Made by a program: the position numbers and the translations under genes. A stretch of DNA of 64,000 nucleotides from Moniliella sp. 'wahieum' (Eukaryota), in assembly GCA_003971905.1 (NCBI GenBank), contig RSEE01000039.1, forward strand, positions 248,001 through 312,000, in the 5' to 3' direction. The notes below the pieces were generated by a model. It was not told the origin of the DNA and made no database searches. It saw only the letters and a list, made by a program, of their open reading frames with translations. This document shows, piece after piece, positions 9,265 through 55,553 of this stretch; position 1 is the first letter of the stretch, and every line of letters begins with the position of its first letter.

Positions 9265-9650
9265 GCTTAAGCGCTCAAGGCTGGGACAAAAAAACGCTGC
9301 GCCTCAACTGACCTTCATCCGGCGTATGTTGCTTGTTGGTATGAAGCTAAGAGATGAAGCTATCGGTCGATGAAGCGTCAGCTGGACGCTTGAAGAGGTG
9401 AAGCGCTGAACTTCAGCGTGTGTTGAACGTTCATTCAACGTTCACCGGTCACCGGTGAGGTCACTCCTGAGGCTCTTCTTGGTCAGCTGCTTCAACGCTT
9501 CAGGTATAATATCGACGAGACACTGACCAGAGTTACTGGTTACTAGCTTTACTAGAACCAGTTACTGGTTACGAATGACTTCGTCGCACGACCCTTCCAC
9601 CTCCGCTCCACTCCACCCTCCACGTCCGCTTTAAAACTGACTAGTCACAA
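9265..9650. repeat. Cluster of xyTNAy'x' palindromic heptamers upstream of the peroxin gene
   Basis: GTTGAAC 9422, GTTCACC-GGTCACC-GGTGAGG 9440-9460, CCTGAGG 9466, AGTTACTGGTTAC twice (9531, 9560), TGACTAGTCA 9638. Confidence 0.75.
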
Positions 9651-10930
9651 TGACCCAGTGAATGACTTGACTCGATACTTGATGTGGCGTGTGGAGGCGG
9701 AGGCGGAGTTTGATGTTCTATCATACCTGTTCCGCACTTCGTTTCTACACGGGAAACTTTTGCTGCAGGTAGCTGTTTGTGGCTCTGCACCATCGTCATT
9801 ACCAGTGAACGTGAACGAGCATCCTACCGACATTAAGGTTCGGCTCGTGACCGCCTCTCTTGTCTCCCTTTGGTCTCTCTCTTCAACGGGTAAGTTTTAC
9901 ATCCGATCCCATCTGGCATTCAAGATGACAAAAGGCGAGACGCCTGACTTCTAACCCAGCTCTTCGCACGCCTGATTCCTCTCCTCGGAGAGTTGAGTCG
10001 GCAATGAGAACAATAGTTACCTCACTGAGCTTTGTTTTCACGGTACCGGAATTGGTCGCTGACTCCCTGTTCTTTCTGCTATTCTTTGCTGCCCTCCCCA
10101 GGGTTTAACGTTTAACGTTTAAGTGGGAATCGGGCGTCGAGTATCAATTGTCAAGCAACTACTGCCCTCACCTATATCACGGTCATGTGCACATCCATTC
10201 GTTCTGCCCTAATGCGATAAACTTTCTGCAATTACCTTCAAGCTTCACTCCTTCCCGGTACGTATCCCCTCTCTCGAATGCCGTCCACTACCTGGTCATG
10301 AATACATTTCTGTTCCACACCCAGACCACGTTTGTCTCTAGTAGAGCCCTTCATAACTATCTCAGCTTACCCTCTTTTTGGTATGGTTGTGCTCCTGACA
10401 GTGTGCATTCAACGAGCACGCTACTACCGCGGTCTCGTAAACTCTGCATCCCTACATAACACCCTCCGGACTGCCTGCTCGAGGTAACCTCCGGGAGAGG
10501 GGAGAGCCCTCGATCTCATCGCTGGTCTCGCCGTCGCCACCACACAGGGGCGAAGTCTCAATGTTCCTTCTCGACAACCAGCAAATGAGACGCTGGCGAG
10601 ATGATGCGAAAGGGGTGAAGCACTAGCATGGTCCGCCATCCCACCACCAATGCGGCCTCACGTACAAAATCCCCTGTCACACACGACAGAAGATGAGCGC
10701 GGTGAGCCACCCATTACATGTCACACCTACCCGCCAACAACTACCATGAATTGGTCAGGATATATCATGCGTATAGTAGAGGTGTACGTGTATGGTAGTG
10801 TCCGCATGCCTTCACCCTCTTATCACCTTCGCGTTCCTCAAGGACGGGCAGGCATCAGAACAGGTCGTGGTGGCCAGCGATTTAGGAAAAGGAGCCCATC
10901 GTCACCGGCTACCACTACAAAAGAGGTAGT

Positions 10931-12834
10931 TTAGTCGACGGTGGGCGACGGCGGACGATGAGTGGGACAGCCAACACCACGAGCCAGCCATCCTTGAAGG
11001 CAGGTTTCATGGAATACGCACAAGCACGCCATTCGTGCCACCGCTTCGCCTATCTCAAAGTCTTCCATGCAAATTGGGCATTCGTCACCCAAGAGTGGGT
11101 TGCCTTCGGCCAACTTGTCTCGCGCGTAGCGGGAATAGATCGACTCGTGTGTATGCGGGTGCGGACGAGCCGGTGTAGGCACCGCCATTTGGGTACGAGG
11201 TAGGGTTCGAATCCCACTCGCCGCCAACAGTGCAGTGGTGGGGGACTCGATGCACTCTCGCACGTGTGCCTCCAGCACCTCAGTCTGCCCTACTGGCGCA
11301 ACAGGGAGTGTGCACACTGGGCACTCGAGCATGCTCGGACGAGACGGAGGTGCTTGACGAAGCGCAGACGAAGACGAATGGACGTGCGCGGGAAGTGAAC
11401 GGGAAACGAGGGGCGAAGGTGACCCAAAAAAGTAAGAGGAAACATATTGCGAAAAGGCATTGCGTTCTCCCGAATCAGGGTTCCTTGAGCTGGTGGAACG
11501 CTCGATCCTCCGTGCCGTCACTGGAGCCGGGAAAGGGGTTGTCCGCATGGGGCCAGGAGAGTGAGTAAGGGGCGCCCGGGGCAAAATGAGACCCTTGTTC
11601 AATGTGCTGCTGACCCAAAACCAAGGCACACTCATCGCAGACTCGCACCGGATCAGACTCGGTGTCGTCAGGCGGCAACGGCGTAGGAGGCGGTACCGAG
11701 ATGCTGCGCGAGTGGTTCGATCCAGCAGGAGGCCTCGCCATGCGTGGGTCATAACTCATATTGGGAGGGAGCACAATCAGATGCTGAGGGATAATGGCGC
11801 GGCGACGGGTGCACTGTGCACAGCACACCCTTCCGCACGAACGACAATGGTGCCGCCGAGTAAAGAGGGTGAAAAGACGATGACATAAATGGCACTCGGG
11901 TGTTGCGGAATCGGGCTCCCATGTGGCACGGCCCTCCAACCATGGGGCACGAGAAGGAGCCGAAGACGAGGGCAAGGCAGAGGAAGGTTGTCCTGACTCT
12001 GGGGGAAGGATCAAGGGAGCAAGTGGGGCTGGCGCTGGTATGGGCTCTGAGGCCTGGGGCGGGGAGCGCGAGGAGCTCCGACCTGCATCTGCATCATCCA
12101 CACCAGCAAGCGTACCGAAACGATCCAGCTCAGGTGCCGTAGATGTAAGCGAATTCCTTGGTACACCTGCGGTGATCGATCTCGGAGTAAGGGGACGATT
12201 CAGACTGGGACTGGGTAGCCTGAGGAGCGGACATGGCCAGTCCTGCAGGGCCTGGAGAAGGGCAAGGAGCGCTGGTTTCAGCGGGAGGTGCGAAGTCCAA
12301 ATATGAATGAGAGAGAGATGAGAAATCAGGGTTGCGGGGCGACTCTGGATGGAGGGAATCTGGCCTGGAGTGAGAGAAGGCGTGAGTCTCATCCGAGGGG
12401 GCAGAGGCTGGTACAGGACGCAGCGGGGAGTTGAGTGACAAGCCGTCCAGAGAGAGCGAGGCCAAACCATCCTCCACGGGAGTGGGAGGAAGCGAACGGC
12501 TATGGGCCATATTGGGATTCACATGGGGAGCATCTGCGGCCGAGGGTGCAACAAATGCTGATGAAGTGCGGTGCGTCAAACTGGCTGCAACAGGGGCGTT
12601 GGGATCCGAGTCGGAAGAGGAATCGCTAACAGGCAATGAAGAAGAAGGAGATGAATAGGCCGATGCGTCGGCGCCAGGAATCTCGGCGGGGACATCCTGA
12701 GGACCAGACCCCGTGTTGTCGCTGAATAGTCCAGTGTGAGATCCGGATGGCTGGAGTTGGGCATGGGGACAGGGGGGGGAGGAGGATGAGGCGGCTGCCT
12801 GGTCAAGAGGCATGGCAGACGACGCGGGAGACAT
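10931..12834 (-). CDS. PIB1: FYVE + RING-H2 E3 ubiquitin ligase (Pib1-like)
   Basis: FYVE domain WEPDSATPECHLCHRLFTLFTRRHHCRSCGRVCC...VRVCDEC. C-terminal RING-H2 CPICMEDFEIGEAVARMACLCVFHETCLQGWLARGVGCPTH. Spread over three frames by indels. Confidence 0.85.
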
Positions 12835-13005
12835 AGCAGAAGACTTTGTGGCAGCCAGACCGGGGGGCAGCCGTGGGAGATCCGACTGCGCTCATGGCAA
12901 TGACAAGTGGATGGGGGTGGCGGTGGTGGCGGTGGTGGCGGCGGGTGGCGCCGATAAAGGGTTGCTCGATTGCTGCTTGCAATTCCTGAGCCGCACATTG
13001 GCTGG

Positions 13006-13310
13006 GATGATGCATGATGCATGATGCATGATGATGATGCATGATGCATGCATGACTCAGGCCATACTCGGCCTGGGTATCAGCAGCTGCTCAGCCTGAG
13101 CATCACCCGTCACCGGTCACACCCCGCACAGTCACCGGCCAAGTCACACATCGCCGCCTAAGCCCCCCCTCAGCGCCTCAGCATGCCCCGTGCCCCAGAG
13201 CCTCACGCGTGACGCCATGCGTCACGCGACACGCCGCGTGCTGACATAAGCCTACTCTCCTAGGTAACCGGTAACCTGCAGGGAACCTAGCGGTCGCCGG
13301 TCACGGTGAT
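13006..13310. repeat. Palindromic heptamer cluster in the PIB1/RPS20 divergent promoter
   Basis: (CATGATG)n 13006-13050, GCTCAGC 13089, GTCACCGGTCAC 13109, CGTGACG/CGTCACG 13208-13226, (GGTAACC)2 13263-13276. Confidence 0.85.
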
Positions 13311-13395
13311 GTCAAAGGTAGATTTGAAATGAAAAACAATCTGCCATTTCAGCTCGAGCAAAGAGTGCGGGGGTTATTTACACGGCAGATGACAC

Positions 13396-13403
13396 AACCC
13401 TAA
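13396..13403 (+). promoter_or_regulatory. Telobox/Tbf1-type site AACCCTAA upstream of RPS20
   Basis: Exact AACCCTAA about 115 bp upstream of the ATG, in the same orientation relative to the gene as at RPP2. Confidence 0.45.
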
Positions 13404-13515
13404 TGAAAATGCGCCGCAGCTTTTGCCGGCCTGTCAAAGTGGGATGCTGGCGCGATGTTCTACCCCCACCCACCAGCTTTTCCTGATCGTCTTCTTGGTC
13501 ACCGCTGATTCCGAC

Positions 13516-18161: not shown

Positions 18162-18197
18162 GATTGGAAGAACGGTCAAGGGAGTATGACTACTAGG

Positions 18198-19795
18198 GGT
18201 AACCGGTAACCCGTAATGGGACAAGAAAGGGCTAAGCGGGGTAAGTGACGGTTTGCGGTGGGTAGGGACGTGGTGGATCGAGCGGATGGATATGGGGGAT
18301 GACCAGATGACCAGTAGCTAGTAGCTAGTGGCTAGTGACTAGTCGTAAGCACCAGACAGTTAAGCGCTACGCTAGGGAGCGAGGTGCACGGGCTCAGGTG
18401 ACCGGTGACCGATCAGTCCGATGAGTCAGATTGCTGGTACTAAGTACGAACTAGTACGGGGTTCAGAATGGGGTTGACTAGTGAGGCCTGAGGGCGGGGT
18501 ACGGGGGTGGTGGATGTTTGGACGCAAGTGGGATGGACTCAAACTGAGAGAAGAGGGAGGCGATATTGAAGGGCCTGATGAGGTAGAGGGAATACGAGGC
18601 CTGAGGTTCAGGACAGGAGAATCGACTCGAGACCTGCCGAGAGGAGAGGGGAGCAAGCCGATGAAGAAGCACAGACGTCGGTGAGGTGGTGGCAGGGAGC
18701 CTTGCCAGTGCCGATCTCCAGGACGGGCATCCCTTTTTGGTCCAAGGGCGTCGTTTGTCGTCTCAGACGTCCGATGGACCCCTCCAACTTGAGGCGCTCA
18801 GGCGCTCAAGTGTACTGCTGCCTGGCCACCGCAAGACCGAGGTCACCTGGGTCACCCGGTCACCATCACGCCAGTCACCGGTCACGACTGCATGGATACG
18901 CCGATTACGTCGATTATGCAGGGTCCTGTGTACCTATGTACAGCTGGTACTTCTGCCGTTAAGCAGGTTAAACGTGAAGCGTTAACCGTGTTGTGCAGGA
19001 GCCGCTGCAGAAGAGAAGCGAGCACCTCGGCAAGAGGCTGGCCATGTGCTGGTGCGCGGGGCTTGCGGTGCCAAGCGGTGCCTGCCCGCTGGTGCTGGGC
19101 ATGTGCGGATGTCTCAACGGGGCAGCTGTGCACGCCGCACTCAGACATGCATCCAGCCCCGTGCTAGTGCGGCGCCGCGGGGCCGGCTCCTGCGTACTCC
19201 AGGACGCTGGACGGCGCTCAGCTGAGCGCTGACGCTGACGGCTGATGCGCTGATAATGATTGGCGCTACGCCCAAGCGCACTACCTGCGCCGAGTTACGG
19301 TAGGCTACGCGTTACGCAGTTGCGGTTAACGTTACGCGTTACGCCTGGTTACCGGTTACGCGTTACGCCTGGTTACCGGTTATGCGTTACGCGTTACGCG
19401 TTACGCGTTACGGTTCTATAGTTAACGTTTAACTACTGTTGCACGTTAGACGTTAGATTCCGCCACCTCTCTCTCACATGTCACGCATGTCACATGCTGC
19501 AGTTTCCTTTTTTCCATACCGAAATCACCTTCCGGCCGCAGGCGGTTTCGGCTTGCCTGGCTCCCAGGGCCTAACCTAAGGCTTAAGGCCAGGCCGTACG
19601 TGCCCTTCTCCGCTCTGCCCCTATGCTCTACCCTCTGCTTTGTCTGGAGGGAGTCTCCCCAACAGTCTCCTGTTCTCTCCCCGATGGACGTAGTCCAGCT
19701 GTGCCTCCCAAACCTACGTACCCTATAGTGATCCGTACAGTAGCCTCTATTAGTAGCTAAAATAGTAGCTAGTAGCGTGTATTAGCGCTTAGCCA
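18198..19795. repeat. Extended palindromic heptamer field upstream of the forkhead gene (part 1)
   Basis: (GGTAACC)2 18198, (AGTAGCT)n grading into AGTGACT 18313-18343, (GGTGACC)2 18397, GGTCACC x3 18841-18864, GCTCAGCTGAGC 19216, (CGTTACG)n/GGTTACC 19307-19412, TGTCACA near 19489, CCTAAGG 19575. Confidence 0.9.
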
Positions 19796-20014: not shown

Positions 20015-20855
20015 TGATGCAGGACGCAGGATGCAGGATGCAGGAATGGTCTTATGCCTGGTAGTAGCGGCTAAGCGCTAAGGCTTAGCGCTGAGGCTCA
20101 GCGCATGGCTCCTGCACATGCATCATGCACTCATGCTGCGCTATGTGCTGCTATAGAGCGCATATAGTCGGCCTTGTAAGCGTTACATGTTAGGTCTGAG
20201 ATCGATGAGGTCATGAGATCATGTCACATGTCACATGCTCATCTTATCGATCATCGCACACGCCCACATGCCAAGTCCTGAGACCTCAGGCCTTGAGGCC
20301 TGAGGCCTGAGGCTTGAAGCTTGAAGCTTGAAGAGCTTGAAGCTTGAAGCGTGAAGCTTGAGGAGCTTGAGGCCAGCCCCAGGCCTGGGCCTGAGGCCTG
20401 AATATTGAATATTGAATGTTGAACGTACCTGAACTTCCTGGACCTTCCACACCCTTGCCCGGCCCAAGTCCTGCATCGAGCACGCTCAGGCTGTCAGGCC
20501 AGTCTGCTCAGTCGCTCACAAGCTCTCAGATCTCGAGGCGCGATCGTATTCAACAGATGCACGGATCTCAGATTCAGATCGAAGAGTGATCTCGAATACA
20601 TATACTGAGTGTACTGAGTTACTATTACTGAAGCTTGAAGCTTGAAGCGTGAAGAGCTTCCGCTCCAGCAATGGAGTTGAGTGGTTGAGCGCGTTGGTTG
20701 AGCGCTGAGGGTGGTATTAGACTGAGTGCTCAAAGTGGCAAGAAGGCGAGCGATTTTTTTGGTGTAAAAAATCTTATTATTAACAACAATCTTAACGATC
20801 TTAACGATCTTAACGATCTTAAGGTCAAAACGTTTAACGTTTAACGTTTAACGCG
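20015..20855. repeat. Extended palindromic heptamer field (part 2)
   Basis: (GATGCAG)n near 20020, GCTAAGC/GCTTAGC/GCTCAGC 20070-20102, (TGTCACA)2 20222, CCTGAGG>CTTGAAG>ATTGAAT>GTTGAAC array 20292-20426, (CTTGAAG)2 20634, (ATCTTAACG)4 20789-20824, (GTTTAAC)3 20832-20852. Confidence 0.92.
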
Positions 20856-23240
20856 TTTATCGTTTTTTAACGCCTTCCAACGCAAGCATACCTTTGCTGT
20901 ATTATTGCTGCAAGGCCTTGTCCCAGCGTCACATTGCCTTCAAGTTTGGCGCGTTGCAAGAGGTCTTGCGAGAGCCAATCCTCAAGTTTGTGCGCTAAGC
21001 TTTTGTGTGCTCCGCTGTGCGGAATATACTCATGCTCACAATGAGCCCGTTGTGGAAAAAGAACAGAAAGCGCGGTGTTGGGGGGGGGAGCAGAGCAAAA
21101 GGCATACGGATTGCCGAGATGTGATAGGGTCGGATGTTTGCTGTGGCAAAGATGTAGGAGTGCACATATAATACTTGTGAGGGACTCTAATAGTACAGAG
21201 GATGAGGCCAAGGTTGAGTACCGGAATGTGACACACGAGAGGAGAGATGACGACACCGGGGTGCAATGGACTGTTTGGAGAAGAAACTGCATCGATTGTG
21301 GAGCAAGCGGAATGCGGCAAAAATGCCCAAGTATAACAGGAACGCAATCAATAGTCGATCTTCGTCCTTTGCCGAGACAAGACGCGGGTACTGTATTTTA
21401 GCAGGACTGTATACCAAAACACGTTGTTTGAGAGTATAGAGAAAGAAACTTACTGTACATTCTCATTGGAGATAAGATGGTTCATCTGAACTCTGAACGT
21501 TCACATGTACTTACCACTCTACTACTCTCATTGTATCCGCGAGCGCTACATTCCGTTTGGAAGGGGATGGCGAAACCGAAAGGTGCTGGCCTGCTGGCAA
21601 CATAACACTTTGCCTTCACCATGAATATTACTATACAGTCCTTAGTTACTGCTAGATAAAAAGGAAAGACCTTGTTCATTCGCATCAGCTCCAGAACTAT
21701 CTGTTCCCACATCTCAGCCTTCTTTTTCTTTTTCCTCTCGATGTATATACTATCTCTGGTGGGCTACCTCTGGTGGGTAGTACATGGACGTAAATAGGTG
21801 AATGTATAGATGTATAGATTGTTTCTTCTCCTTTTCCATTCTCATCCTTCTTATGCCTCTCGTGACACATCTTTTTACTCACCCCACCTAGAACAACCCG
21901 ATTAATCCGTTGTCAATGTGATCGGTACGAGCACCCCACATGACTCTCTGCTTTATTGATGGGTCTATTGCCACAGCGGATGTACACGGGAGCGATCAGG
22001 ACCCGACAATTGCCCTTGGGGATGATGAGTGGCGAAAGCAAGATGACATATACTGATACATGAACACTATTGGTGAGGATGATGAAGATGATCCTGAGAC
22101 TCTCAGTATAGGCACTGCGGCTTTTTGTTTTATTGGCCATTGCGATGAATGGGAGAAGAGAGGATCAGCCCGAAAGGTATGACTGGTCTTGCAATGCTGG
22201 CTGAGAAAACAGTTAATCTATACGAATGACTTTTTGGGGATCTGACGAATTGTGTGCCGGCGTCCTGTTTGGGGATGAGAGAGATTGCACCACTGCACCG
22301 TTGCAGTGAAAGGAGCGATCATTAGCAGACCTGTGCTGTAAGCTCACGGAAATGGATCTAGCTTCTCATTATAGCTGTGTGCATCGCATAGGATAGTTCA
22401 ATGATGGTATGGAATTGCCTTGAGTCCCTGCATAATCCGTGGAAACGGTAGGCACCAAGTCCATATAGGAAAAGATCACATAATCGATGATAATAGGTCA
22501 TGAGTCTGATCCCTTTATCCACAAGAGAGGCCCGTGGGCCCGAAAGACATGAGGCAAAGGTCCATCCCTAGTGTTCGAGCGACAGTAGTTAGCCACTGTT
22601 CTTCCCGAGAGTATTGTCCAGCAGAGACGAAAACAAACCTAGTCATTGCCATCTTCCTTACAGCCTTTGCAAGGGTGGTGAATCCGATCTTTCCCTCTAT
22701 ACTAATAGTACTACTAGCATGAACTTCATGTTTCGCGTCTCTTTTTCCCACTTACCGATCATACCTTGAACATTGAGAACTGTCGCATTACCACCTGTCT
22801 TGATTCGGTTCATGAGCTCAGAACCAAAGAGGAAATACTTGCTTCGCCTCTGGAGAGCCTGCGATCCCACGAGACACCAAAATCCTACCAGCCTTAGGCC
22901 TTGCACCTTTTGGTCTACTCGTGCAAAAAAAGATGCGGCACCGGTAATCAGTGCTGCTGCGCAAGACCCCACTCAAAAGGCAGAACAATTTCTCTTTTCC
23001 AACACTGTCGGCCACGAGAGAGGGCGCTTCTATGCAATTATCCGATCAATTGTGTACCGCTTTTCAGCGCTTATCATTGGCGTTTGGTCTGGGTCATGGA
23101 GGATCTTCCATGGATGGAGGCCCATAGAGTTTTCCGGGGGAACAGGCCCGTGCGAGGTCGACAGAATCAGGAGACAAAGAATCCTAGATGACAATGAGAA
23201 AGTGTGGTTGCTGTGATATATGATGAGGGCAGTTGGACTG

Positions 23241-34739: not shown

Positions 34740-36694
34740 CCCGGGCCGCGGGGGAGGGGGTGGAGGTGGAGGCGGAGGTGGGGGCGGTGCAGAGGGGCGG
34801 GTGGCTGATAAATGCGTCGTGCGCTTGTCCTTCGACCGTCTCCACCCACCCACCCGTCCGAAATAAGAAACGCCCCTTCGGCCCATCGCTTGTCCCAGCC
34901 ACAGCCCCCACATCACATCCGCATCCCTTCCACACTCACGCCGTGCGCGTGATGTGCCTAACACCACCCCATCACATGGCCACGCGTCTCTTGCCAGTGT
35001 GAAGAATCATGCATCATGGGCATGGGATCATCGATCAACATTCAATGCGATCCCATGCATTGCACCGATGGCCCACCCCCTTGCTATTACCGCAATGCGG
35101 GAGAGGCACACTCATGTTGGTATTACTCTTCTCATCCAACATCGATGCATCTCCCATTGGGCGCTTCTACCCCCAACGGGGGGCGCATAGATCGGCATCT
35201 ACCACTCCACCGCCTCGTCTGCCATCTTCCAAGCCTGGGCCTAGCAGGACATGGTGCACCACCAGGCCTATCACGGCCTCTCACCAGTTGATGCTAAAAT
35301 AGCTTTAGCATACCACACTCTCCCCGAAAAACATCTCCCTTTTTCGGCCCCTCCATTTTCTTTATCTAATTATCGAGCACCGAATCATGTCGTCCAGTGT
35401 ATCGGCAAGGAAAGAATCTTGGGGGCAGCGTTATCCGGGTGCCTCCATGTCTTCATCATCCCCAGTAGGCGGGAGGGCCGAAGGCCAGAGGAGCCAGCCT
35501 GTGAAGGGAAAAGCGCTTTTCTTTTATATACACGTACCAAGTTTGTTGGTCATCAATCATTCCATAACAGAAAGAACGATGTGTGGAACGCTGGGAGAAG
35601 GAGTTGCTTCTCTTCCCCACTCTGTTTTCGAGCAAAAGCCGAATGCGAAGACAAGAACGTCGAGTTTATATTAGTACCGGACGGAACCACTCGAGAACCA
35701 TTCTCTCCCTTGCGGAGGAGGGTTTGGCACAGAGCATCAAAAGTGAACAAACACAGTAAACTGATTTTGTTCGAAGGTGTATAAGCTGCTTCGGCTGCTG
35801 GAACGGATATGCCTTCAAGACAGCGGGCAAGATGCTTGGGAAATGGATGGAATTGACTACTGAGTCTCAATGGAGATAGTTTTTCACCGTTCGGATGCCT
35901 ACCACGTTCATTCATCCGTATCCACACCCGCTTCCTCGGGTATGGGAACGGATGGCGAGCACCACAGAGGGTGTTAGAGGATGCGTGAGCTTCCATCACG
36001 GGTCATCAACTTCATCGGCCACGCCATGCACTGTTGGTAAGAGGAAGCCATCTCGACTTTCTGCCCATGTGCGTGCGCAGCATTAGTTGCGCTCGCGCCT
36101 CCTTCCCTCTCTCCTTTCAATTCTCCCTGTTGCTCTCAAGATTGGATAGCTAGCTAAGGAGCTTACAAGAAGCCATCTCTGACTGTTCCCTTCTCTCTCG
36201 TGCACAGTTTATTTTGTTGCATAAGTCCTTGGCTCATTGGAAGCTCGTAGCTATTCCGGATTCAACGGACGACAATATCTTAGTCTTTAACCCATTGGAA
36301 GCTCGTAGCTACCCTGGCGTTCGCATTAGCGGACGACAGCTTTCCGAGCGCTCTCCGTTGACCGACTCCTCGTCCTCACCCATCGATCGCTCCGCACGTA
36401 CCCTCGTGCTCTGCCAGAGGGACCTGATCTTCTGGCGATCCACCTGGTTCCTTAAACGGGGTTTTGACGATAAAACAAGCAACACGCGCCGGATGAACGG
36501 GTCGGTTTAGGCGCAGTGTTTCTTTGTCCCACAGCCCCTAAGCTCTGTCAATGAGATGATGACAGTGTATACAGGCCCGTGTAGAAGAAGAAAGCGGTGG
36601 CAGCACAGCGAAACGGTGGAATGATGCTCCGCTCCAGACTGAGAGGCTGGCGGTGAGCTGTGGAGTTCGCTTCCGCGGCGGGCCGGCCAGAAAG

Positions 36695-37600
36695 CTGTGG
36701 TGACGCTGTGGTGACTCCACGGTGACGTTGTGGTGACGCTCTCTGGTGACACTGGTGACCGACTATATGGGAATGCCAAAAACCCCACACGATTGTATGG
36801 AGTGGCTCACGGCATGACACTCATGGTCACTCGATGCATCATATGGCCCGTTTACTTCTAATTACCCCACTGCCGCTCGGAGAGGACCCTGGGCGCAGGG
36901 ACCTAACATGTAACAGAGGACATAGGTCCTAGCGGCTGCGCCAGCCGGCACCAGCCGTCGAAGCTTGAAGCTGAAGCTCCTCCATGTCACATTGACACAT
37001 GGCATGTCCGCATTCTCACCGTTCATATTCACCCACTGGCCATGTCATCGAGGACGGTCAGCGTCAGCGTCGCAACAGCGCCTCTGCCGTTGATCGATGA
37101 CCGCATGACCGGCCTGGCCGGCTGACCTGAGCCTGACGGTGCGACTGTTCGGCGCAGACGGTGACGCTGACGCGCTGACACTGGATAGGGGGTGCGCGCG
37201 CTGCGCAGCAAGGGAGTGATTAGTAGTGGCCGATGAAGAGGTGGCCACCCGACAGAGAGGATGACGCACACAACACTACTTCCAAAGTGTAGCCGATGGA
37301 TGTTGCGCGGACGCATTGATATATTACGCCAAGAAAAACAGGTGTGATTCGATGACCGCATTGCCTCTCTTTGGCATTGCCTTCCAGGCCATCAGATGCG
37401 ACCTAATAGAGGGGGCTCACGCGCTCACGGCAGAAGGGGAGCTGCTGCTGAGCTGCGTGCTGGCTGAGCACTGGCTGAGCGCTGATGCTGGCTGTGGCTG
37501 CACCTACAATCGCGACTAATTTATGATTGACTAGTGATCCATGCGATTCAAGCTAGGCTCACCGCGCTGAGCTCTGTTGAAGGTTGAGCTTGAGCTGAGC
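36695..37600. repeat. GGTGAC array and palindromic heptamers upstream of the sedolisin gene
   Basis: GGTGAC at 36699, 36710, 36721, 36732, 36745 and 36754; CTTGAAG 36964; TGTCACA 36985; GCTGAGC at 37447, 37463, 37474, 37566 and 37594. Confidence 0.7.
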
Positions 37601-40611: not shown

Positions 40612-40717
40612 GGTGACCGGTGACCGGTGACGTGAACGTGAACGCGTGAACGTTGAACCAAGTACGTTCAATATTCAACGTTCAAAGTACGTACGTCCAA
40701 TGTTCAACTAGTTCAAC
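40612..40717. repeat. Palindromic heptamer array upstream of the Tvp38-like gene
   Basis: GGTGACC GGTGACC GGTGACG...GTTGAAC...GTTCAAT ATTCAAC GTTCAAA...GTTCAAC TA GTTCAAC. Confidence 0.85.
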
Positions 40718-40840
40718 GAGCGTCCTGCGCCTGATGCGCGGCAGGAGGGCAGTGTAGGCAACCTGTTCGCAGCTCGCTACGCTCGCGCCGCTCGGCCGAT
40801 TGTGCGGCGTAGCGCAGATGCTGATATAGCAGGAAAAGAG

Positions 40841-43097: not shown

Positions 43098-46074
43098 ATG
43101 CTCACCACCGCCTCGTGGCTGCAGCAGCGCTGGCACGCCGCCCACCCGCCCACCACCGAGCAGGACACCGTCCGCGCCCTCGCCGCCCGCCTCGCCCTCG
43201 CCGCCGATGCCAACCCCCAGCCCTCCGCGCCCGAGTCCCAGTCCCCGCCTCGGACCAGGACCAAGCGCTGGCCGACGTCCGCGCCGCCCTCTACAGTCTC
43301 CGCAGCCTCGCTCGCAGTCGACCCGCCCTCGTTGCTTCCGATGCCTGGGCCGCACTCTCGATGCCCTCCCCCTCCTTGCCGCCCCCCTGCCCCTCTGCCT
43401 CCGCTTGACATGGGCCACATAGCCTCCCCCTCCGGTGGGGAAGACCTGGCGCGGCAACGGGCACGCCAGGCCGCGCGCATGCGTCAAGTCCGTCGCGCGG
43501 CACACGAACGCGCGCGCGGGGAAGTGTTGACGGCGTTGCTAGATACCTTGACGGCGCTGTGCGACGACCCGGCGCGGGCCGAAGCGTTCTTGAAACAAGA
43601 AGGCTGGCCTGGTCCTTGTCGCTGCTCGGACCCGGGGTGCACCTTTCGGAGCAGCAAGTTTCGCCCGACTTGGATTACGCGCCTAGCGTCGCGCTGGCCT
43701 CCCTTGCGCTTCTTCGCACTTGGTTCACTCGGCGCCGGAGCGAACGGGAGCAGCGCTGCTGTCCCTTGGCGGTGGAATGGCCGTTCTGCTCCATTGCATC
43801 TCCCAGACGAAGCGCAATTTGAGCCGGACGAAGAAGAACCGCAGGGGGTGCATGCGCGTGCAGCATTGCGGGGGGAAACGTTGTTGCTGCTGCCTTCGTT
43901 GGTCGGACACAGTGCGCCGTTGGCCCAGCTGGCCCTGTACGAGGGCGGATTGGACGTCTGCTCCGCTTCCTCTCTCTTCGTGCGCAGGCACGGGGACTAT
44001 CCCCCTTCCCTGGGAAACCGATTTGGACGCGCTCGAATCCTGCGAGGCCATCCTCACTCGAGCTCAGGGCGCACGCAAGTACTTCTCCCAAGCGCGCCTC
44101 GGCACCCTTCTCCGTCCTGTCCTTGAACGAGGAGGGGAAGTGACAGCACAAGCAGGCCTGAGGGTGCTGCAGGTCTTGCTGGCCGATCCCGAACCTGAGT
44201 CGCTGCAACCCACCACAGGATATTCACAATGAGACGCCGAAGGAAGGGACAACTAAGGAGAGACAACCGAGGAGACAACCAAGGAGACAACCAAGGAGAC
44301 AACCAAGGAGACAACCAAGGAGGAGACAACCAAGGGGAGGACACCCAAGGAGGAGACAACCAAGGAGGAAACACCCAAGGAGGAAACACCCAAGGAGGAG
44401 ACGGACAAGTCAGAGAAGGCGGAACTGGCCAATGATGAGACGGGCAAGGAGAAGGAGCTCAATGAGACCAAATGGAGGTCCAACGGCACATTGCCGCCAC
44501 CTGCTTCCTTGGGTGGGGACGCTGCTTTGGACCGCCATTGAACGTGCGTGTGCACGCGGCGGTAGTCGGTGACGCTGGCAGTAGAAGGGTGTCTGGAAGC
44601 GCAGGCGTCTTTCGTCCAGTCCCGTGCCATCCCACCTCTTCTACATGCCCTTTTGACACTCGGGCTGGAAGCGAATCAGAGGAGGACCCACGTGCGCTCG
44701 GGGTGTGTATGTCGCCTTCCTCAGCCTCCTTGACCGATTGGGGGAGAACATCGCTCTGCGCAAAGCTCTTATTCACTGTTTGCTCCTTCCTCCTGAAGAG
44801 AATGGGGAGGCAATGGCACCAATCGACCCTCTGGACCCAGAGTGGAGAAGGTTTATCTTCTATTGCCAGGAAGGGCAGCCTCTCCATTGGCACACGTCTG
44901 GCGACGGGCAAATTGGATGCACAAGGATTGCGAGCTTGCCAGATTCTTTCCCATCTACTAAGGGGCTCCAACGAAGCGAAGGATGTTCTCCGCAATCTCG
45001 TTCTTCCCATGTCACCCTCCGACAGCCAGCCTGAGAAGGAAGGCCAACCAGCTGACGTGAAGAGAATCCCCTTCATGGAGTTTATGTTATTGCTTCTTCA
45101 GGCTCCGGCGCCCCGGACCCAGGTGGGCGTCCTTACACTCCTCTCGCAATGGGGGTGGGACTACGCCCTGCCCTTCTCACCGGACCTTATGTCCGTGCTC
45201 ACCCAAATGCTGGGGAAGGAGGACTTGCTCCCGGCTCTGGCTGCGTTGGCACTGGGCGTGAACGCCACGTTTTCCCCCTCTCCCATGGGCGAAGAAAGCA
45301 AGGCGGTGGTCCCGCCCTTGGCTCAACTGGTCCAGATCAGTTCGCTCCTACGGGATCATGTGACGTTTGCCCGTCTGCGTCCTGCTGGGGGCGCACTTCC
45401 CACGCCCGGACCGCTGCCTCTATCCTACGCTCTTCCCGGCTGTCCGGACTGGGGTGGGGAATGGTTCGATTGGCCTTTTGTGCTGTGGTGGCAAGGGGCG
45501 ATGAGTCTGATGGCCCACACGACCGCTCGCACCTTCCTCCCTTCCCCCCAGGCTGGAAGCCAGCCGAGCCTCCCTCCTCCTCCTTCGTGCTGAAGTACAG
45601 TCTGTTCGTCAAGCCCGTGTTGAGGCTGAGAGAAAGCAGGACGAAGCCACTGCCAATCTAGCCGCCCTTCGAACCAAGCTCGAGGCCGAGGTGCACCTTC
45701 GCGCCATGGGAGCGGCTGGGGCAGCGGCCGAAATCCGGCGATTGCGGGACGAGGTGGGCAGGCTTGCTCCTGCGCCTTGCTGGGACGGCGGCGGCCGAGG
45801 AGGAGTCGGCGGACGAGAAGGAAGTTTCTTCTGAAGAGGAGGAGGAAGAAAGAAGGAAGAAGCACTTGTTTCTCCTTCGCCTGATCCGGTTCTGTTGGAA
45901 AGGATCGAGCGACTGCAACTCTTGCTGCGGGAGGCAGTGCAGGTCCAAGAGGCCGAAACGGAGAATGAGGACTTGCTGGTCTTGCTGGAGGACTTGAGTC
46001 TCAAGCGAAGTGCAGAGAAGGAGCTTCTACGGTCCTGGGGGGAGCCAGTGAGCGAGGACGACGAAGAGGAATAA
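43098..46074 (+). CDS. USO1: Uso1/p115-like vesicle tethering protein
   Basis: N-terminal TEQDTVRALAARL and armadillo-head motifs (RGETLLLLPSL, ACQILSHLLRGS, WFDWPFV). Diagnostic C-terminus ENEDLLVLLEDLSLKR...GEPVSEDDEEE*. Several frameshifts. Confidence 0.8.
44245..44405 (+). repeat. Coding minisatellite (GGAGACAACCAA, 12/15-bp units) encoding ETTK/EETTK
   Basis: About 10 tandem imperfect units inside the Uso1-like gene. Confidence 0.9.
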
Positions 46075-50029: not shown

Positions 50030-50665
50030 ATGTTGAACGTTCAAGTTGCGCTGAACGCGTTGGACCCTCATCCATCACATGCGCATCACACGGCGAATCG
50101 CACATCACTTGCATCACTATCCCCACCGGCCCCACCATCCTCCATTTCCGGTGGCGTTGGCCTTTACCGACCCCGTGCGCCCAGAGCGGAATCAAGCAGT
50201 GGGCGGAACGACACAACGCACGCGTAAGCTATGCACCATGTGCCTACCTAAGGCCTGGCCGGCTTACCTAAGGCCTAACCCGATTCCCGGCCAGTTCGTT
50301 ATCGAATCGGTTATCGATTATCGACCGTCGTATATCAATCTCGTCTGCCTTGTGGTATCGATGTATCCCCCGACTCGATCGAGTCATCGAGTCACCGCAG
50401 TATGATCGATGATCGAGATGACCACTCGCTTGAAGCTTGAAGCTTTGAAATGTGAAACTTGACCCGTGGTTACCGGGTTACCGGTTATCGACCGGTTATC
50501 ACCCTTGTGTGAACAGTGAGCGCGCGCTGAGCTCAGCACCAAAGATAATCGATGGCATCGACCATTCGATCAATCGTCCCGAGTTGGCCATCGAGTCACA
50601 TCGAGTCACCTGAGTCAGTTCGCCAGGCTTTCGTCTCATAGATCATCGACATCGATCATCGAGTT
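50030..50665. repeat. Palindromic heptamer cluster in the GH79/epimerase divergent promoter
   Basis: GTTGAAC 50032, CCTAAGG 50247/50267, GATTATC 50316, GATGATC 50408, (CTTGAAG)2 50429, GGTTACC 50468/50476, GCTGAGCTCAGC 50526, GATAATC 50544, GATCATC 50641/50654. Confidence 0.88.
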
Positions 50666-50823
50666 TGGCTTTTGAAGCCTGGAGCTTGCCTACACCTCCA
50701 ATCGCTTTGGATGTCGATGCCCGGACACGTTAAAAATACTTGCGCAGTCTCTGTTCAGTGCACCAAGTCATCTGATCCGAGCGCCTGAGCCTCTCTCCCG
50801 CCCGATTTTCTCAGCTATACGCC

Positions 50824-51826: not shown

Positions 51827-52079
51827 CGAGGTTGAGAATGAATATTGAGGAGGCCCGACGAGGAGGGGAGGGGAGCATGTGCGTCATAGGCTGCGTTTGC
51901 CCCACAATTGGCGTGTTGCTATGGCAAGGAACACAGCTGGGGAGACTAGAGAGTGGGCTTCCGTCGGGGCGCGTGCTACGACGCCCTTGGGCTGTCGGCC
52001 CGAACAGATGCACGAAGGCTGCCGGCGTGCCGCTTTCTTTGCTGCGACTAAAATAGGGCCATTGGTTTCAGGCCTTCCA

Positions 52080-52567
52080 TTTTGAAGCTTCCTTGAAGCG
52101 TACGGGGCCGGGGGTCGGACTGCGCAGCCACGCGCTCGGCTGCCCCCGTGCTGCCCTGCTGGGGGCGGCCGCAGTAGGCCCGGCCGTAGCCTGCCGCAGC
52201 CCAGCGCAGCCCATGCAGGCAGGTGCATGATGCTGATGCATGATGCATGATGTATGACATTCATGACACTGCCCCGTGCAGTGCAGGCCGGCGCCTGGCC
52301 GCAGCTGGCGGCCCCAATCTTAGCGCTCGATGACGCGTCCTTCCTAGCCATCGCGGCAGCCGAGTGCACATGCGTCGTTACGTTCATCACGCGTCAACTA
52401 TCGCCGAAACCGAGTTGATGCATGGGCCTGCACCAGCGCAGTGTGGCTGCCGGGCGATAGGCTGCCCACGGCTGGGCACCAGCACTGCCCCGCGTGTGGG
52501 GCGTGTGTCAGAAGGCGAGGGCGCATGGCATGGGCCCTGCCAGGCACTGCCAGGCACTGCCAGGCAC
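52080..52567. repeat. Palindromic repeats upstream of the Pmp3-family gene
   Basis: CATGATG at 52226, 52239 and 52246; (TGCCAGGCAC)3 at 52538-52567. Confidence 0.75.
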
Positions 52568-52763
52568 CTTTTCTGATCGTGGATGCGCTCCGAGGGCGGC
52601 CGGGCTTGCGCCGCGGAGGCTAGCTTGGCGCCGGTGGCCATTGGGCCACAACATCCACCCCAGATGGCAACCATGTGAGTTTGCGGCAACGGCGACCGGC
52701 TTGCCAGCCTTCGTTCGATCCCGTCTTTTTCCGTTCTGCCCACCTTCCCCTACACTTCCCGCC

Positions 52764-53732
52764 ATGTCTGAAGGGCGCCCTGCCCCTGCGTATCCCACGC
52801 GCCAGACCGTCAACTACCGCCGCGGCAAGCGAGCGGCCAACCCAATGAAGCGCCGCCATTGGTACACTGGTCTGATCATTCTGTGTGGCTGGCTGTTGCC
52901 ACCGCTTGCGGTCGCCGTGCGCTTTGGGATTGGCCTTGACTTCTTCATCAATGTCATCCTCACCTGCTGCGGCTACATCCCCGGCCACATCCACAACTTT
53001 TGGATCCAAAACATCCGCAACAACAAGAACAAGAACCATTCGCCCGCCTGGGCCGTACGCAACGGCTTGATCAAGGACTACCGCCGCGACAAGGCCCAAA
53101 AGCGCCAATGGGCTGGCCGATACGACGACGATGGTATGGTGGGTGGCACCTCCCATTACGACCGCCAGCGCTGGGAAAATGAAGAAGTGGTGGTCGATCC
53201 CGTCTCGGGCGAGACGAGGCGGGAGCATCCGGTGGCTACCGGCTTGCCCCCCGCGCCGTGGAAGACGGACCCCAATGCGCCCAACGGCCGCGACTGGGAC
53301 GATGACCTGGCCCCCGAAAAGCAGGAGGACCGATTTGCTCGCAGCAAAAATGCTCGCAATCCTGCCCCGGCAGGCAGGAGGGACAGCGTGACGGGCGCGT
53401 GGATTCAAAGCGGGGAGGAGTTGCAGCCGAATGTCCCTGGCGGCAGTGGCTCCACCAGCGGACTCGACGCGGGGAGGGACAAGCCGCGCAAATCAAGCAA
53501 GAAGAAGGCGCCGTTGCAACAACAGTATGCTGAACGATATGGCTTTTCCCGTTCGTCCTTGTCCAATTCGAGCGACAGCCTCCGTAATGCGCGCGGGTGG
53601 ACGGCCGGGTCGGGCGATGCATTGGACCGTGAGCTGCAAGGCGGTAGGAGTGCCGATGTGCCACCCAAGACTGTCTCGAACAATCCCTTCGACCGCGTCG
53701 TTGCGAACGACGGCCTTGATCATCAATTCTAA
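52764..53732 (+). CDS. Pmp3/UPF0057-family membrane protein with a long hydrophilic C-terminal extension
   Basis: GWLLPPLAVAVRFGIGLDFFINVILTCCGYIPGHIHNFW. Intact 322-aa ORF. Confidence 0.88.
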   Translation: MSEGRPAPAYPTRQTVNYRRGKRAANPMKRRHWYTGLIILCGWLLPPLAVAVRFGIGLDFFINVILTCCGYIPGHIHNFWIQNIRNNKNKNHSPAWAVRNGLIKDYRRDKAQKRQWAGRYDDDGMVGGTSHYDRQRWENEEVVVDPVSGETRREHPVATGLPPAPWKTDPNAPNGRDWDDDLAPEKQEDRFARSKNARNPAPAGRRDSVTGAWIQSGEELQPNVPGGSGSTSGLDAGRDKPRKSSKKKAPLQQQYAERYGFSRSSLSNSSDSLRNARGWTAGSGDALDRELQGGRSADVPPKTVSNNPFDRVVANDGLDHQF

Positions 53733-53956
53733 ATCGAACCGCACCCTCCCTCCCCGTGGGTTCACCTGGGATGCATCACACAATCAGTTTGGTCTCATGT
53801 GTTGATGCGTGGATGCATTGTTTCTCTCCTTGGCTTCCCTGCTTCATATGTACCTCGCCATCTCTGCTACGCATATTTCCGGCGCTTTGCCCGCTCCGTC
53901 CCACCCTCTGTGAATCAAATGGACTGATCGACGAGATTGCCAAAAGAGGTAGAATT

Positions 53957-55272
53957 TTACTGATGTACAGTTTCTTGTACACCTGCCTCGGTCCCATCCT
54001 CTGTCTCTGCCGCTTGCGGCGCGGGAGGCGGGGGCGCGGGCATAAGCCGTTGGTGCAACGCCGCGGTTGCCCCTAGGGCAGCAGCCTGAGCTTGCAACAG
54101 GGGGAGTAACGTAGCTTCCGCAGCTCGGACCGTCTGTGGGGGCAAGTTGGCCTGCGAGAAGATGGCCTCCTCTGGGCCTGCAACGGAAGAGGAGGCAGGA
54201 CAGACGAGCATCGTCAAAGCCAAGAGGGCCAACGTACCATGCTCGATCCGCGTAAAATGAATGTTCCACTAAATTCAAGTTAGTGAAAGGTAGATGCGAC
54301 ACAGAGGAGGATCGAGAAGCACATACGTGGTCCAGGTGGGACCCAGCGCGGGTGTAGGAATACCCCACGCTGAGGTACAGGCTGTACGCGGCACGATAGA
54401 GGAAGAGGGCAAGTAAGCTCAGCATCGCGGGCAAGCGCCATGCCCGACGTGTCAACGAACCCTTACTCTGAACCCGAGGGCAGATGGAGGCGAGGAGAGG
54501 GAGAATAAAGGCAGAAACCAGTCTGCTACGGTTTGGACGACAGTGAGGGGTATCAGGTGGTCCAACAATCCCAGGACACCGGGTCCCAGGGTGGCTAAGG
54601 AGAAGAGAGTCGCTTGGAGCGCCAGCTGGCCCAGGCGCGTGACGAGAAGCGAATAAAGGGCAAAGTCAGACCAGCCATGTGGGGAGGGGTCCAGATTTTG
54701 CCCAGAGAGGGGGCGACAAAAGTCGCAGGCGAAGACCTCGGGCCCAAAGAGCAAGTAGGCCCGTCGACCCTCCATGCTGCCCACTCGCCGCAGGATGGGC
54801 TCGAGGGCGGGTAGATGTGGCGTGCCGTGCAGGAGGGTGCGCAAATGAGCCCGCAGTTCAGAGTTAGGGGCATATGCATCCGTATTGCTTTGCAGAAACA
54901 GGTCAACAGAGCTGGCGGTAGCAGAGGGCCAAGGGACGAGGAAGGCAAAGGTGTGAGCCAAGGAGGCCAGGTGGCTGCCCAGCCCCAGCAAAAGTGCGAC
55001 GACAGCGAGCTGGGGCAGGTGAACTCGGGCTTGCCTGGCTGCCTCGCCGTTTGGACCAAAGCTAAGGGGCTGGACGACACCGACGAGGGGGTTGGAAAAG
55101 CCCCAGGAGCGGGGGCCGCAGAGGAGTGGGCGGCGGCCCAGGCGCGGAAGAGGGCGAGACGAAGGCGAGTGAACAGCGCCCAAGCAAGACGGAGAAGCAG
55201 GACGCCTGCGACGGGCAGGACGAGCTGGAGGATCCACGTGCCCTCCTCGAAGGCGCCCGCCTGCGTGGCCAT
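53957..55272 (-). CDS. Conserved fungal multi-pass membrane protein of unknown function
   Basis: Several hydrophobic segments and the motif ILRRVGSMEGRRAYLLFGPEVFACDFC...DFALYSL, recalled from an uncharacterised fungal family. Spread over 4 ORFs by indels. Confidence 0.6.
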
Positions 55273-55366
55273 GGCGGGGTGGCGGGATGGGCGGATGGGG
55301 TGGGTGAGGAGCGTGTTAGGGAGGTGTGACTGCGAGGGGCTTCGAGGCGGTGGGCTTCGAGCAGTC

Positions 55367-55553
55367 GTTGAAGGTTGAACGTTGAACGTTTAAGCTTGAA
55401 GGCGCACGGGGTGGATTTGAAATTGAAGGCGTGCGCGGTTGAGCCTGGTGGGCGGACGAGTAGGGTTGCCCGTTCCGCGTGCCTGGAACCCGTGCCTGGT
55501 CCAACCCTAACGCACCGCCAGCGCACCACCTGCCACCTGCCACCTGCCACCTG
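55367..55553. repeat. Heptamer arrays in a divergent promoter
   Basis: GTTGAAG GTTGAAC GTTGAAC GTTTAAG CTTGAAG (55367-55401), AACCCTAA 55503, (CCACCTG)4 55526-55553. Confidence 0.85.

Follow-up and report, generated by a model that had tools for sequence, protein, structure and literature searches.

Short tandem arrays of palindromic heptamers, built on one rule of symmetry rather than on one sequence, are concentrated upstream of genes in a segment of fungal DNA. The segment, hereafter called the window, is a 64,000 nt stretch of Moniliella sp. 'wahieum' (GenBank assembly GCA_003971905.1, contig RSEE01000039.1, positions 248,001 to 312,000), and coordinates below are counted from its first nucleotide. 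In almost all of the arrays the unit carries the core T-N-A (TNA), flanked on each side by two arm bases that are complementary to those on the other side. The pattern is real and highly non-random. The reading favoured here, to which we assign a probability of about 0.4, is that the arrays are a lineage-enriched class of self-complementary, hairpin-capable heptanucleotide microsatellites that turn over in open 5' intergenic DNA; on this reading they are neither the sites of a sequence-specific factor nor the footprints of a transposon.

Exact tandem arrays with a period of 7 (at least 2 copies) number 38 in the window, compared with 3.5 +/- 2.1 in 20 dinucleotide shuffles; in 100 such shuffles the mean was 3.63 and the maximum 8. 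Periods 8 and 9 give 8 exact arrays each, and some of the cluster arrays with these periods consist of a palindromic heptamer plus one or two added bases. In 27 of the 38 period-7 arrays, one rotation of the unit is perfectly palindromic, i.e., odd in length and self-complementary about a central base, whereas such arrays average 0.49 (maximum 3) in the shuffles; relative to the chance rate of 10.2%, the binomial P is 6.6e-19. This reverse-complement symmetry of the unit is enriched at period 7 only (71% vs. 10% for random 7-mers), and at periods 4-6 and 8-15 in the window it is at or near chance. The core is T-N-A in 25 of the 27 palindromic arrays, A-N-T in 2 (both CTAGTAG), and C-N-G or G-N-C in none (0 each), although the latter two are the commoner palindrome cores in this sequence of 57% GC. 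TNA-core arrays are palindromic in 25 cases and non-palindromic in 3, and the exact arrays alone span 12 TNA unit classes. A preliminary description of this DNA, made from its letters, had pointed out the 6-bp palindromes at the junctions between units; these are present, but they are the arithmetical result of placing palindromic units in tandem and do not constitute a separate observation.

The same preference is seen when heptamers are counted individually. Window-wide, 260 TNA-core palindromic heptamers were found where 188 +/- 13 were expected, and 26 of those found have an in-phase neighbour at +7, compared with 0.6 expected (maximum 3). A histogram of the distances between TNA-core palindromic heptamers peaks at 7, 14, 21, and 28. 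The other three palindrome cores show neither enrichment nor +7 phasing in the same window-wide counts, so that comparison with shuffled sequence and with other cores, which had been proposed as a check, comes out in favour of the pattern. In 5' DNA, 24 palindromic arrays are found for ~100 palindromic seeds, and 5 non-palindromic arrays for ~9000 other positions. The birth of arrays from arbitrary 7-mers by ordinary slippage is therefore insufficient, as had been argued from the existence of one symmetry rule across many units. The arrays thus share with microsatellites the head-to-tail repetition of exact short units beyond chance, but not the freedom of any unit, whatever its symmetry, to seed an array.

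Genes were placed on an approximate, home-made map, which uses a codon-usage score trained on Pfam-positive open reading frames (ORFs). On this map, 24 of the 27 palindromic arrays lie inside 9.4 kb of 5' intergenic DNA, either between divergently transcribed genes or 5' of a gene in a tandem arrangement; the remaining 3 lie no more than ~120 bp from an inferred gene 5' end or within a doubtful gene model. None (0/27) falls in the convergent gaps, which occupy 5.0 kb on the same map (Poisson P ~3e-6), and the earlier suggestion that arrays are restricted to 5' DNA and divergent promoters is thereby borne out. Counts of TNA palindromic heptamers by region, with expectations obtained by shuffling the arms among the nnTNAnn sites of each region, are as follows:

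5' intergenic DNA: 132 observed, 40 +/- 6 expected, 14.0 per kb
Genic DNA: 113 observed, 116 expected, 2.3 per kb
Convergent gaps: 15 observed, 14 expected, 3.0 per kb

The arm-shuffle expectation is exceeded in 5' DNA alone. The 'convergent gaps' retain a 3-base periodicity, which indicates that they contain coding DNA and that less than 5 kb of them is true 3' non-coding sequence; with that limit, the difference in density between 5' DNA and the gaps is the one that the preliminary description had anticipated. Base-identity autocorrelation, another of its proposed checks, gives in 5' DNA a peak at lag 7 (0.308 vs. ~0.26) and no 3-base periodicity.

Within 5' DNA, 27 of the 32 TNA palindrome classes are in use, and the units conform to a rough consensus S-N-T-N-A-N-S. 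Of the 136 units, 103 have G or C as the outer base, compared with a local GC content of 55%, and 96 (71%) have G or C at the centre. At the second arm position there is hardly any base preference (G 42, T 38, C 34, A 22), but complementarity to the partner is retained. The commonest units in 5' DNA are CTTGAAG (14 copies), GCTGAGC (11), and GTTGAAC, GGTGACC, CATGATG, and CGTTACG (10 each); units are present in both orientations. Few arm sequences go unused, and the second arm base, though free, matches its partner, which a protein could not impose through independent half-site contacts; a single sequence-specific transcription factor is therefore an unlikely cause of the arrays. The preliminary description had considered a symmetry-reading promoter factor; the breadth of classes in use (27 of 32) speaks against a sequence-specific factor of any kind, and the one recognisable consensus that members of a homotypic site cluster would share is not found. 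Class usage and the G/C outer bases are better accounted for by a structural rule, in which G/C forms a clamp around an A/T centre, than by a rule of sequence.

Perfect runs comprise only 2-4 units, with array lengths of 14-40 bp, and are embedded in longer, degenerate, in-phase chains in which the type of unit changes. Adjacent in-phase units have the same centre base in 41 of 44 pairs, a different one in 3 of 44, and a complementary one in 1 of 44. In contrast, each of the four arm positions differs in 9-12 of the 44 pairs (vs. 3 for the centre; Fisher P = 0.012), and within arrays the arms are ~3.5 times more variable per site than the centre base. Examples are the stretch at 20292-20424 (CCTGAGG x2, CTTGAAG x3 ... 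CCTGAGG CCTGAAT ATTGAAT ATTGAAT GTTGAAC), with centre G, and the chain GGTTACC GGTTACG CGTTACG at 19347, with centre T; the base that is constant inside one array differs from array to array. Since 41 of 44 adjacent units share their centre base, growth is direct rather than inverted. These counts show that arrays grow by direct duplication of 7-base units through same-strand slippage, with the centre base copied unchanged.

The same counts bear on the idea that the symmetry was written by inverted copying, i.e., by quasi-palindrome template switching or by fold-back (snap-back) synthesis in replication or break repair, such that each half-unit is made as the reverse complement of its neighbour. 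Arm changes are indeed often mirrored, some across the unit centre (CCTGAGG to CTTGAAG, ATTGAAT to GTTGAAC) and others across the junction (GGTTACC GGTTACG CGTTACG; CCTGAAT ATTGAAT), and the region at 40.6 kb turns from centre G to centre C halfway, forming an overall palindrome. In yeast, template switching at promoters is documented (PMC13100816, PMC3820800). However, inverted copying across a unit centre must complement the centre base, which only 1 of 44 adjacent pairs does, and it leaves both the period of 7 and the T-N-A core unexplained. The 'spacer inversion' named for such copying (PMC8604942), a mark of template-switch hotspots, is likewise not seen: of the 44 pairs, 41 have identical centre bases and 1 has complementary ones. 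Hairpin-templated copying as a mode of growth, one of the candidates offered earlier, is thus disfavoured, and an origin of the symmetry in inverted copying appears quite improbable.

Dyads centred on a unit are broken in 18 of 59 cases and dyads at a junction in 10 of 44. Since the two are broken about equally, neither the heptamer nor the junction hexamer is a privileged palindrome; what is kept is self-complementarity across the array. Arm changes preserve a dyad on the unit or on the junction. Mirrored changes are seen across both kinds of axis, and single asymmetric changes are equally common.

These observations also bear on the possibility that one or more dimeric architectural or general regulatory proteins read the T-N-A-centred dyad by DNA shape. 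The heptamers would then be candidate binding modules, kept as homotypic clusters in promoters, for example for a nucleosome-free region, with slippage only supplying copies. Such a protein would be consistent with the strict 5' location (on the approximate gene map the arrays have the promoter location of homotypic site clusters), with the invariant T and A at +/-1 and the bias of the outer base to G or C, with intact modules separated by variable spacers of 1-20 bp, as in homotypic clusters, with the few units common to 5-6 of 9 promoter regions, and with the use of both orientations. On the other hand, 27 of 32 classes are used, and a protein could not enforce symmetry at a second arm base that it does not read; junction dyads are kept at least as well as unit dyads, so that the heptamer is not privileged; and a centre base that is constant within arrays and variable between them fits recent copying, not constraint. 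We know of no fungal dimeric factor with a half-site that ends in T beside a central base. A shape-reading protein is therefore judged an unlikely explanation.

The sites on which these counts rest are listed below. The nine clusters and three small sites named in the preliminary description were all inspected and hold the units that it describes.

3062..3077: GTTGAAC x2.3, 5' of a + strand gene (3178-5423)
9265..9600: degenerate cluster in the divergent gap between a Pex24p-like gene (-) and a weak + ORF; GGTCACC x2.1 at 9442-9456 and single CTTGAAG, GTTGAAC, CCTGAGG, and AGTTACT
10103..10122: GTTTAAC x2.9, within a doubtful gene model
13004..13276: divergent promoter of a FYVE/RING gene (-) and a ribosomal S10 gene (+); CATGATG array at 13007-13050, single GCTCAGC, inverted pair CGTGACG/CGTCACG, GGTAACC x2 at 13263-13276
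18198..18986: GGTAACC x2, CTAGTAG x2.4 (the A-N-T exception), GGTGACC x2.1, and GGTCACC x3 with 1-2 nt spacers at 18841-18864
19221..19457: CGTTACG/GGTTACC arrays with centre T throughout, a 24-bp higher-order unit, and hybrids such as GGTTACG
20016..20853: densest region; GCTAAGC, CATCATG, TGTCACA, then at 20277-20424 a chain CCTGAGG > CTTGAAG > ATTGAAT > GTTGAAC in a single phase with centre G throughout; CTTGAAG x2.9 at 20629; GTTTAAC x3.6 at 20829
35012..35046: single CATCATG, GATCATC, and ATTCAAT, centre C in each
36694..37600: upstream of a sedolisin-like gene (+); GGTGAC at an 11-bp period, ending in GGTGACC; single CTTGAAG and TGTCACA; five GCTGAGC modules with variable spacers
40612..40718: GGTGACC x2.9, CGTGAAC, GTTGAAC (centre G), then GTTCAAT, ATTCAAC, GTTCAAC (centre C); an imperfect large palindrome overall, between the 3' end of the sedolisin gene and the 5' end of a VTT-domain gene
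50032..50662: divergent promoter of a GH79 gene (-) and an epimerase gene (+); GTTGAAC, CCTAAGG x2 (20 bp apart), GATTATC x2, GATGATC x2.1, CTTGAAG x2.6, GGTTACC with a +1 spacer, GCTGAGCTCAGC, GATCATC x2 (13 bp apart)
52092..52257: single CTTGAAG and a CATGATG array at 52224-52257, upstream of a Pmp3 gene (+)
55367..55401: GTTGAAG GTTGAAC GTTGAAC GTTTAAG CTTGAAG in one phase, in a divergent promoter beside a CRAL/TRIO gene (+)
55526..55553, + strand: (CCACCTG)4, non-palindromic and outside the class, in a + ORF with a high coding score

The last of these had been taken for the array that closes the series; as a non-palindromic repeat in what is probably coding DNA, it does not belong there. 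At 13205-13228, in the 13 kb divergent promoter, the sequence CGCGTGACG-ccatg-CGTCACGCG combines two palindromic heptamers of opposite orientation into an inverted repeat with 9-bp arms. An array of period 10, GGCACTGCCA x3.5, lies at 52533-52567 (repeat 52537-52567), 5' of the Pmp3 gene. It follows the same logic at another period: 4-base half-sites are mirrored about two alternating single bases (TGCC-A-GGCA-C), giving two on-base dyads.

The window is eukaryotic, and fungal by the Pfam content of its ORFs (119 scanned). The genes have introns, as indicated by ORFs that are interrupted every few hundred bases. The following Pfam domains were found on ORFs:

6.9-8.1 kb, -: Pex24p
10.9-12.5 kb, -: FYVE plus RING
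13.5-13.9 kb, +: ribosomal S10
24.1-24.8 kb, +: Longin
25.6-26.4 kb, -: complex I 30 kDa subunit
29.6-30.5 kb, -: DcpS/HIT
37.9-38.6 kb, +: sedolisin pro-domain
41.7-42.2 kb, +: VTT
47.4-48.1 kb, -: GH79 C-terminal domain
50.9-52.1 kb, +: epimerase
52.5-53.7 kb, +: Pmp3
55.5-57.3 kb, +: CRAL/TRIO
57.8-59.9 kb, +: Iml2
61.5-61.9 kb, -: Ty3/gypsy integrase SH3 remnant, within ~61.4-63.8 kb (61354-63841)

The element at the end of this list had been called a retrotransposon. It is only the remnant of a Ty3/gypsy integrase, and the window contains no long terminal repeat pair of at least 40 nt. A homologue search with the CRAL/TRIO ORF gave no match at E <= 0.001 among the candidates scored. Comparison with a protein atlas gave discordant affinities, with Zoopagomycota clusters nearest to the CRAL/TRIO ORF and a Basidiomycota cluster nearest to the Iml2 ORF. 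Three further segments stand apart from the arrays. The region 21400-23000 is low in GC (46-47% vs. 57% overall) and has neither a Pfam-positive ORF nor a heptamer array. At 32686-33667, a 242-270-bp unit occurs in 4 tandem copies with 63-75% identity to the reference copy, within - strand ORFs of a long repetitive gene that lacks a Pfam domain. At 44229-44425, a 15-bp repeat, AAGGAGGAGACAACC, is present in ~12 copies beside + strand ORFs and is probably a repetitive coding segment.

To return to the microsatellite reading, an array of at least ~3 units would allow either strand to fold into a hairpin in which 6 of every 7 bases are paired, with a T-N-A loop. Such hairpins could stabilise slipped intermediates on both strands, so that symmetric units would expand and asymmetric ones would die out. 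By stalling polymerases and provoking error-prone synthesis, they may also keep perfect runs at 2-4 units, and structure-induced error would make the stem-forming arms change faster than the centre. Arm variants that restore a dyad, at the unit centre or at the junction, could be re-amplified, and quasi-palindrome template switching may add to this process. Nucleosome-free, negatively supercoiled promoter DNA would favour strand opening and so might account for the 5' restriction. In addition, a tandem T-N-A unit would place a stop codon in every frame on one strand, which could bar arrays from coding DNA; at the array sites inspected, the strand with TGA or TAA is not consistently related to the downstream gene. 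If the arrays affect promoter function at all, for example by excluding nucleosomes, this would be a secondary matter.

Several published findings provide a background for these steps. Structured short tandem repeats (STRs) stall polymerases, with point mutation and a constrained repeat length as consequences (PMC7441554). Template switching homogenises the arms of inverted repeats and is frequent at yeast promoters (PMC13100816; also PMC8794818, PMC3820800). In bacteria, heptamer simple sequence repeats (SSRs) are over-represented in intergenic DNA; polymerase slippage with a favoured size of 7 nt has been proposed for them, and this size has been suggested to reflect the segment of DNA held in the polymerase active site (PMC4692102).

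Folding energies, compared with those of dinucleotide shuffles, show that single strands of the arrays adopt hairpins closed by TNA triloops. For the array of 136 nt at 20290-20425 the energy is -32.5 kcal/mol (z = -8.6), and two shorter arrays have z values of -3.1 and -4.2.

Similar arrays occur outside this window. In a single metagenome scan that used three copies of CYTGARG, 121 loci were recovered, most of them bacterial-like and many with seeds that are hybrid units; no homologous pairs were present among the 121 except overlapping pieces of one contig. Eukaryote-like contigs contain CCTCAGG followed by GCTCAGC (L010) and GTTAAAC followed by CTTGAAG (L062), abutting in phase in both cases, GATGATC and GTTCAAC (L006), and a second CTTGAAG array (L024). 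The palindromic TNA array type thus exists in independent assemblies and is probably present in other fungi. The occurrence of different TNA palindromes in phase in independent contigs points to a process at the level of DNA rather than to the transcription factor of one organism. Among period-7 arrays other than the seeds, 15 of 67 in 'prokaryote-like' contigs are palindromic (6 GNC, 4 CNG, 4 TNA, 1 ANT), as are 2 of 21 in 'eukaryote-like' contigs, both TNA; sorting by ORF density and GC was too crude, however, and misplaced L010, L024, and L062, which hold all four TNA cases of the prokaryote-like set.

In L024, two copies of a dispersed repeat of ~100 bp (4860-5021 and 7340-7465) each finish in a CTTGAAG array, which in that organism may be carried along by a repeat element; no such repeat-linked arrays were seen in the window. 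The bacterial-like contig L055 (67% GC) carries at 4978-5028, between genes, (CCCCGGG)3.6 followed in phase by (CCTCAGG)4.3, and all 5 of its 5 period-7 arrays have palindromic units, mostly with G/C cores. L003 (5037 nt, 62% GC) is extreme in its heptamer repeats, with 93 exact period-7 arrays in 5 kb, 10 of them with palindromic units.

Arrays of this kind in independent metagenome assemblies from several projects also argue against an assembly or sequencing artefact. Moreover, the arrays, at 14-40 bp, are far shorter than a read, they are confined to 5' intergenic DNA, and they lie within degenerate in-phase chains that carry point differences. That the pattern is an artefact is accordingly very unlikely.

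A number of observations weigh against the microsatellite reading. Four homogeneous arrays have weak fold z-scores (-0.8 to -1.9), which is attributable to their dinucleotide shuffles remaining self-complementary. The hairpin model gives no reason for T-N-A (25) over A-N-T (2), C-N-G (0), and G-N-C (0), and none for the absence of a symmetry excess at periods 5 and 9. Nearest-neighbour stacking values do not separate TGA from AGT. Triloop stability was dropped as a cause of the T-N-A core, since DNA triloop bonuses favour G-N-A loops, not T-N-A. A further difficulty lies in the earliest step: stretches of one or two units cannot form a stable hairpin, and in 5' DNA the step from one copy to two looks hundreds of times likelier for palindromic TNA heptamers than for other 7-mers. 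An alternative for this step is that the single units are decayed arrays. Structure is also reported to limit rather than promote expansion (PMC7441554). Several promoters in the 21-35 kb region have no arrays, and a few units recur widely, CTTGAAG and GTTGAAC in 6 of 9 promoter regions and CATGATG in 5 of 9. The metagenome support is anecdotal, with 6 non-seed TNA arrays in four contigs, at a density several times below that of the window. Finally, repeated intact palindromic units are often set apart by 1-13 nt of filler that falls exactly at the boundary between units, as in GGTCACC-tg-GGTCACC-c-GGTCACC at 18841, the five GCTGAGC modules at 37447-37600, and the CCTAAGG pair 20 bp apart at 50247. 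Such filler-spaced units look like discrete modules, as would be expected of protein sites or of cut-and-fill events.

The second of these possibilities can be stated more fully: a dimeric enzyme that cleaves DNA symmetrically, whether a transposase, a domesticated derivative of one, or some other nuclease, would cut open promoter DNA at a 7-base stagger about T-N-A, fill-in and end-joining would duplicate 7 bases, sometimes adding 1-2 filler bases, and the copies would become new targets. A period of exactly 7 with the symmetry axis on a base is what an odd stagger demands, the T-N-A core with G/C outer bases resembles a cleavage-site preference, filler lies precisely between intact units, the location is in accessible 5' DNA, and the isolated 14-bp (GGTAACC)2 sequences at 13263 and 18198 begin and end in palindromic phase. 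There are precedents among DDE transposases, whose targets may be odd T-N-A palindromes or yield 7-bp duplications at a palindromic consensus: IS10/Tn10 prefers NGCTNAGCN, PIF a 9-bp palindrome around TTA, and Galileo (P superfamily) duplicates 7 bp at such a consensus. Gene 5' regions are favoured by some DDE elements, and trapped Top2 gives rise to 4-bp duplications by fill-in.

Other observations in the window speak against cleavage. Only 7 of the 27 array runs start in palindromic phase, most of the others beginning 1-2 bases into the unit, which lends no clear support to target-duplication phasing. Independent half-site preferences cannot produce 25 palindromic and 3 non-palindromic TNA-core arrays with nearly all arms in use. 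No transposase domain was detected in the 119 ORFs scanned. A search of the window for elements with terminal inverted repeats (a 7-bp direct repeat beside termini that match at 12 or more of 14 inverted positions, 40-15000 bp apart) found none (0), including none of the P/Galileo type with identical 7-bp flanking repeats. Same-unit arrays in the window have no common flanks, which indicates that they are not carried by a mobile element there, and no dispersed or inverted repeats of at least 40 nt join the clusters. We know of no eukaryotic enzyme with such a stagger and target, and regard cleavage footprints as a very doubtful origin of the arrays.

The preliminary description had proposed footprints of PIF/Harbinger transposases in particular. 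These enzymes duplicate 3 bp with A or T at the centre, and one transposase has one consensus; in the arrays the period is 7, not 3, there are 27 unit classes, and, with G or C at the centre of 96 of 136 units, most do not read TWA. With no Harbinger or other DDE transposase domain in the scanned ORFs and no element with terminal inverted repeats and 7-bp direct repeats in the window, PIF/Harbinger footprints are excluded as the direct cause. A broader proposal is that the arrays are written or read by machinery that recognises dyad symmetry itself. In one form, a nuclease working as a dimer, or a domesticated transposase, would make staggered cuts of 7 bases at T-N-A in open promoters, each fill-in adding one unit; in the other, the arrays would be supercoil-sensing, cruciform-capable elements with which fungi of this lineage keep promoters nucleosome-free, replacing poly(dA:dT) tracts. 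This is a long shot rather than a working assumption.

Among known systems, those closest to the arrays include the bacterial heptanucleotide SSRs, such as the cyanobacterial short tandemly repeated repetitive sequences (STRRs), Xanthomonas GGGAATC, and Nostoc GGGGAYT (Mrazek et al. 2007 as cited in PMC4692102). Both kinds of repeat are intergenic with an over-represented period of 7 bases, and the bacterial repeats vary in length, some being arranged for hairpins or cruciforms (PMC4692102). In bacteria, however, a genome has one or a few non-palindromic, G-rich units, and symmetry, where there is any, arises from inverted blocks, whereas the arrays of the window have a fungal host, an odd palindrome in each unit, dozens of unit sequences, one T-N-A rule, and a 5' location only. 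Of the features that define bacterial long simple sequence repeats and STRRs, the window therefore has the intergenic 7-nt excess, but neither the prokaryotic genome nor the small number of units. Structured STRs, e.g., the CNG triplet repeats, resemble the arrays in that single strands form mismatched hairpins, and in them slippage and structure-induced stalling shape both length and point-mutation load (PMC7441554). No precedent was found among them for a rule of any complementary arms around T-N-A, and the heptamer class would go unseen in STR surveys, which end at 6-nt units. Quasi-palindrome or template-switch mutagenesis likewise makes symmetric multi-base changes that perfect inverted repeats, and in yeast it is enriched in transcribed and promoter DNA (PMC13100816, PMC3820800, PMC8794818, PMC8604942); unlike the repeats of the window, which are tandem with a fixed period of 7 and a 1-nt 'spacer' inverted in 1 of 44 cases, it acts on isolated inverted repeats and inverts the spacer. 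In the literature searched, which did not cover most subscription journals, no description of palindromic heptamer arrays in fungal promoters was found. What is new relative to known repeats is the odd-palindrome unit, the many sequences under one rule and core, and the restriction to promoters in a eukaryote.

One symmetry rule, complementary arms about a T-N-A centre at a period of 7, covers most of the repetitive DNA upstream of genes in the window. A 7-base class such as this can escape notice, even where it accounts for much of the promoter DNA, as simple-repeat surveys usually end at 6 bases and minisatellite surveys begin at ~10. If their origin is mutational, the arrays would offer a clean natural system in which secondary structure, supercoiling, and polymerase behaviour shape promoters, and could reveal why slippage favours a size of 7 bases in both bacteria and fungi, distant as these are from each other. 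If instead a protein reads or writes dyad symmetry, the arrays would reveal a new promoter architecture or a new genome-editing activity, and a machinery that recognises symmetry would, if real, be a new kind of promoter-shaping system. Under either cause, the arrays are likely to be fast-evolving sources of variation in gene expression.

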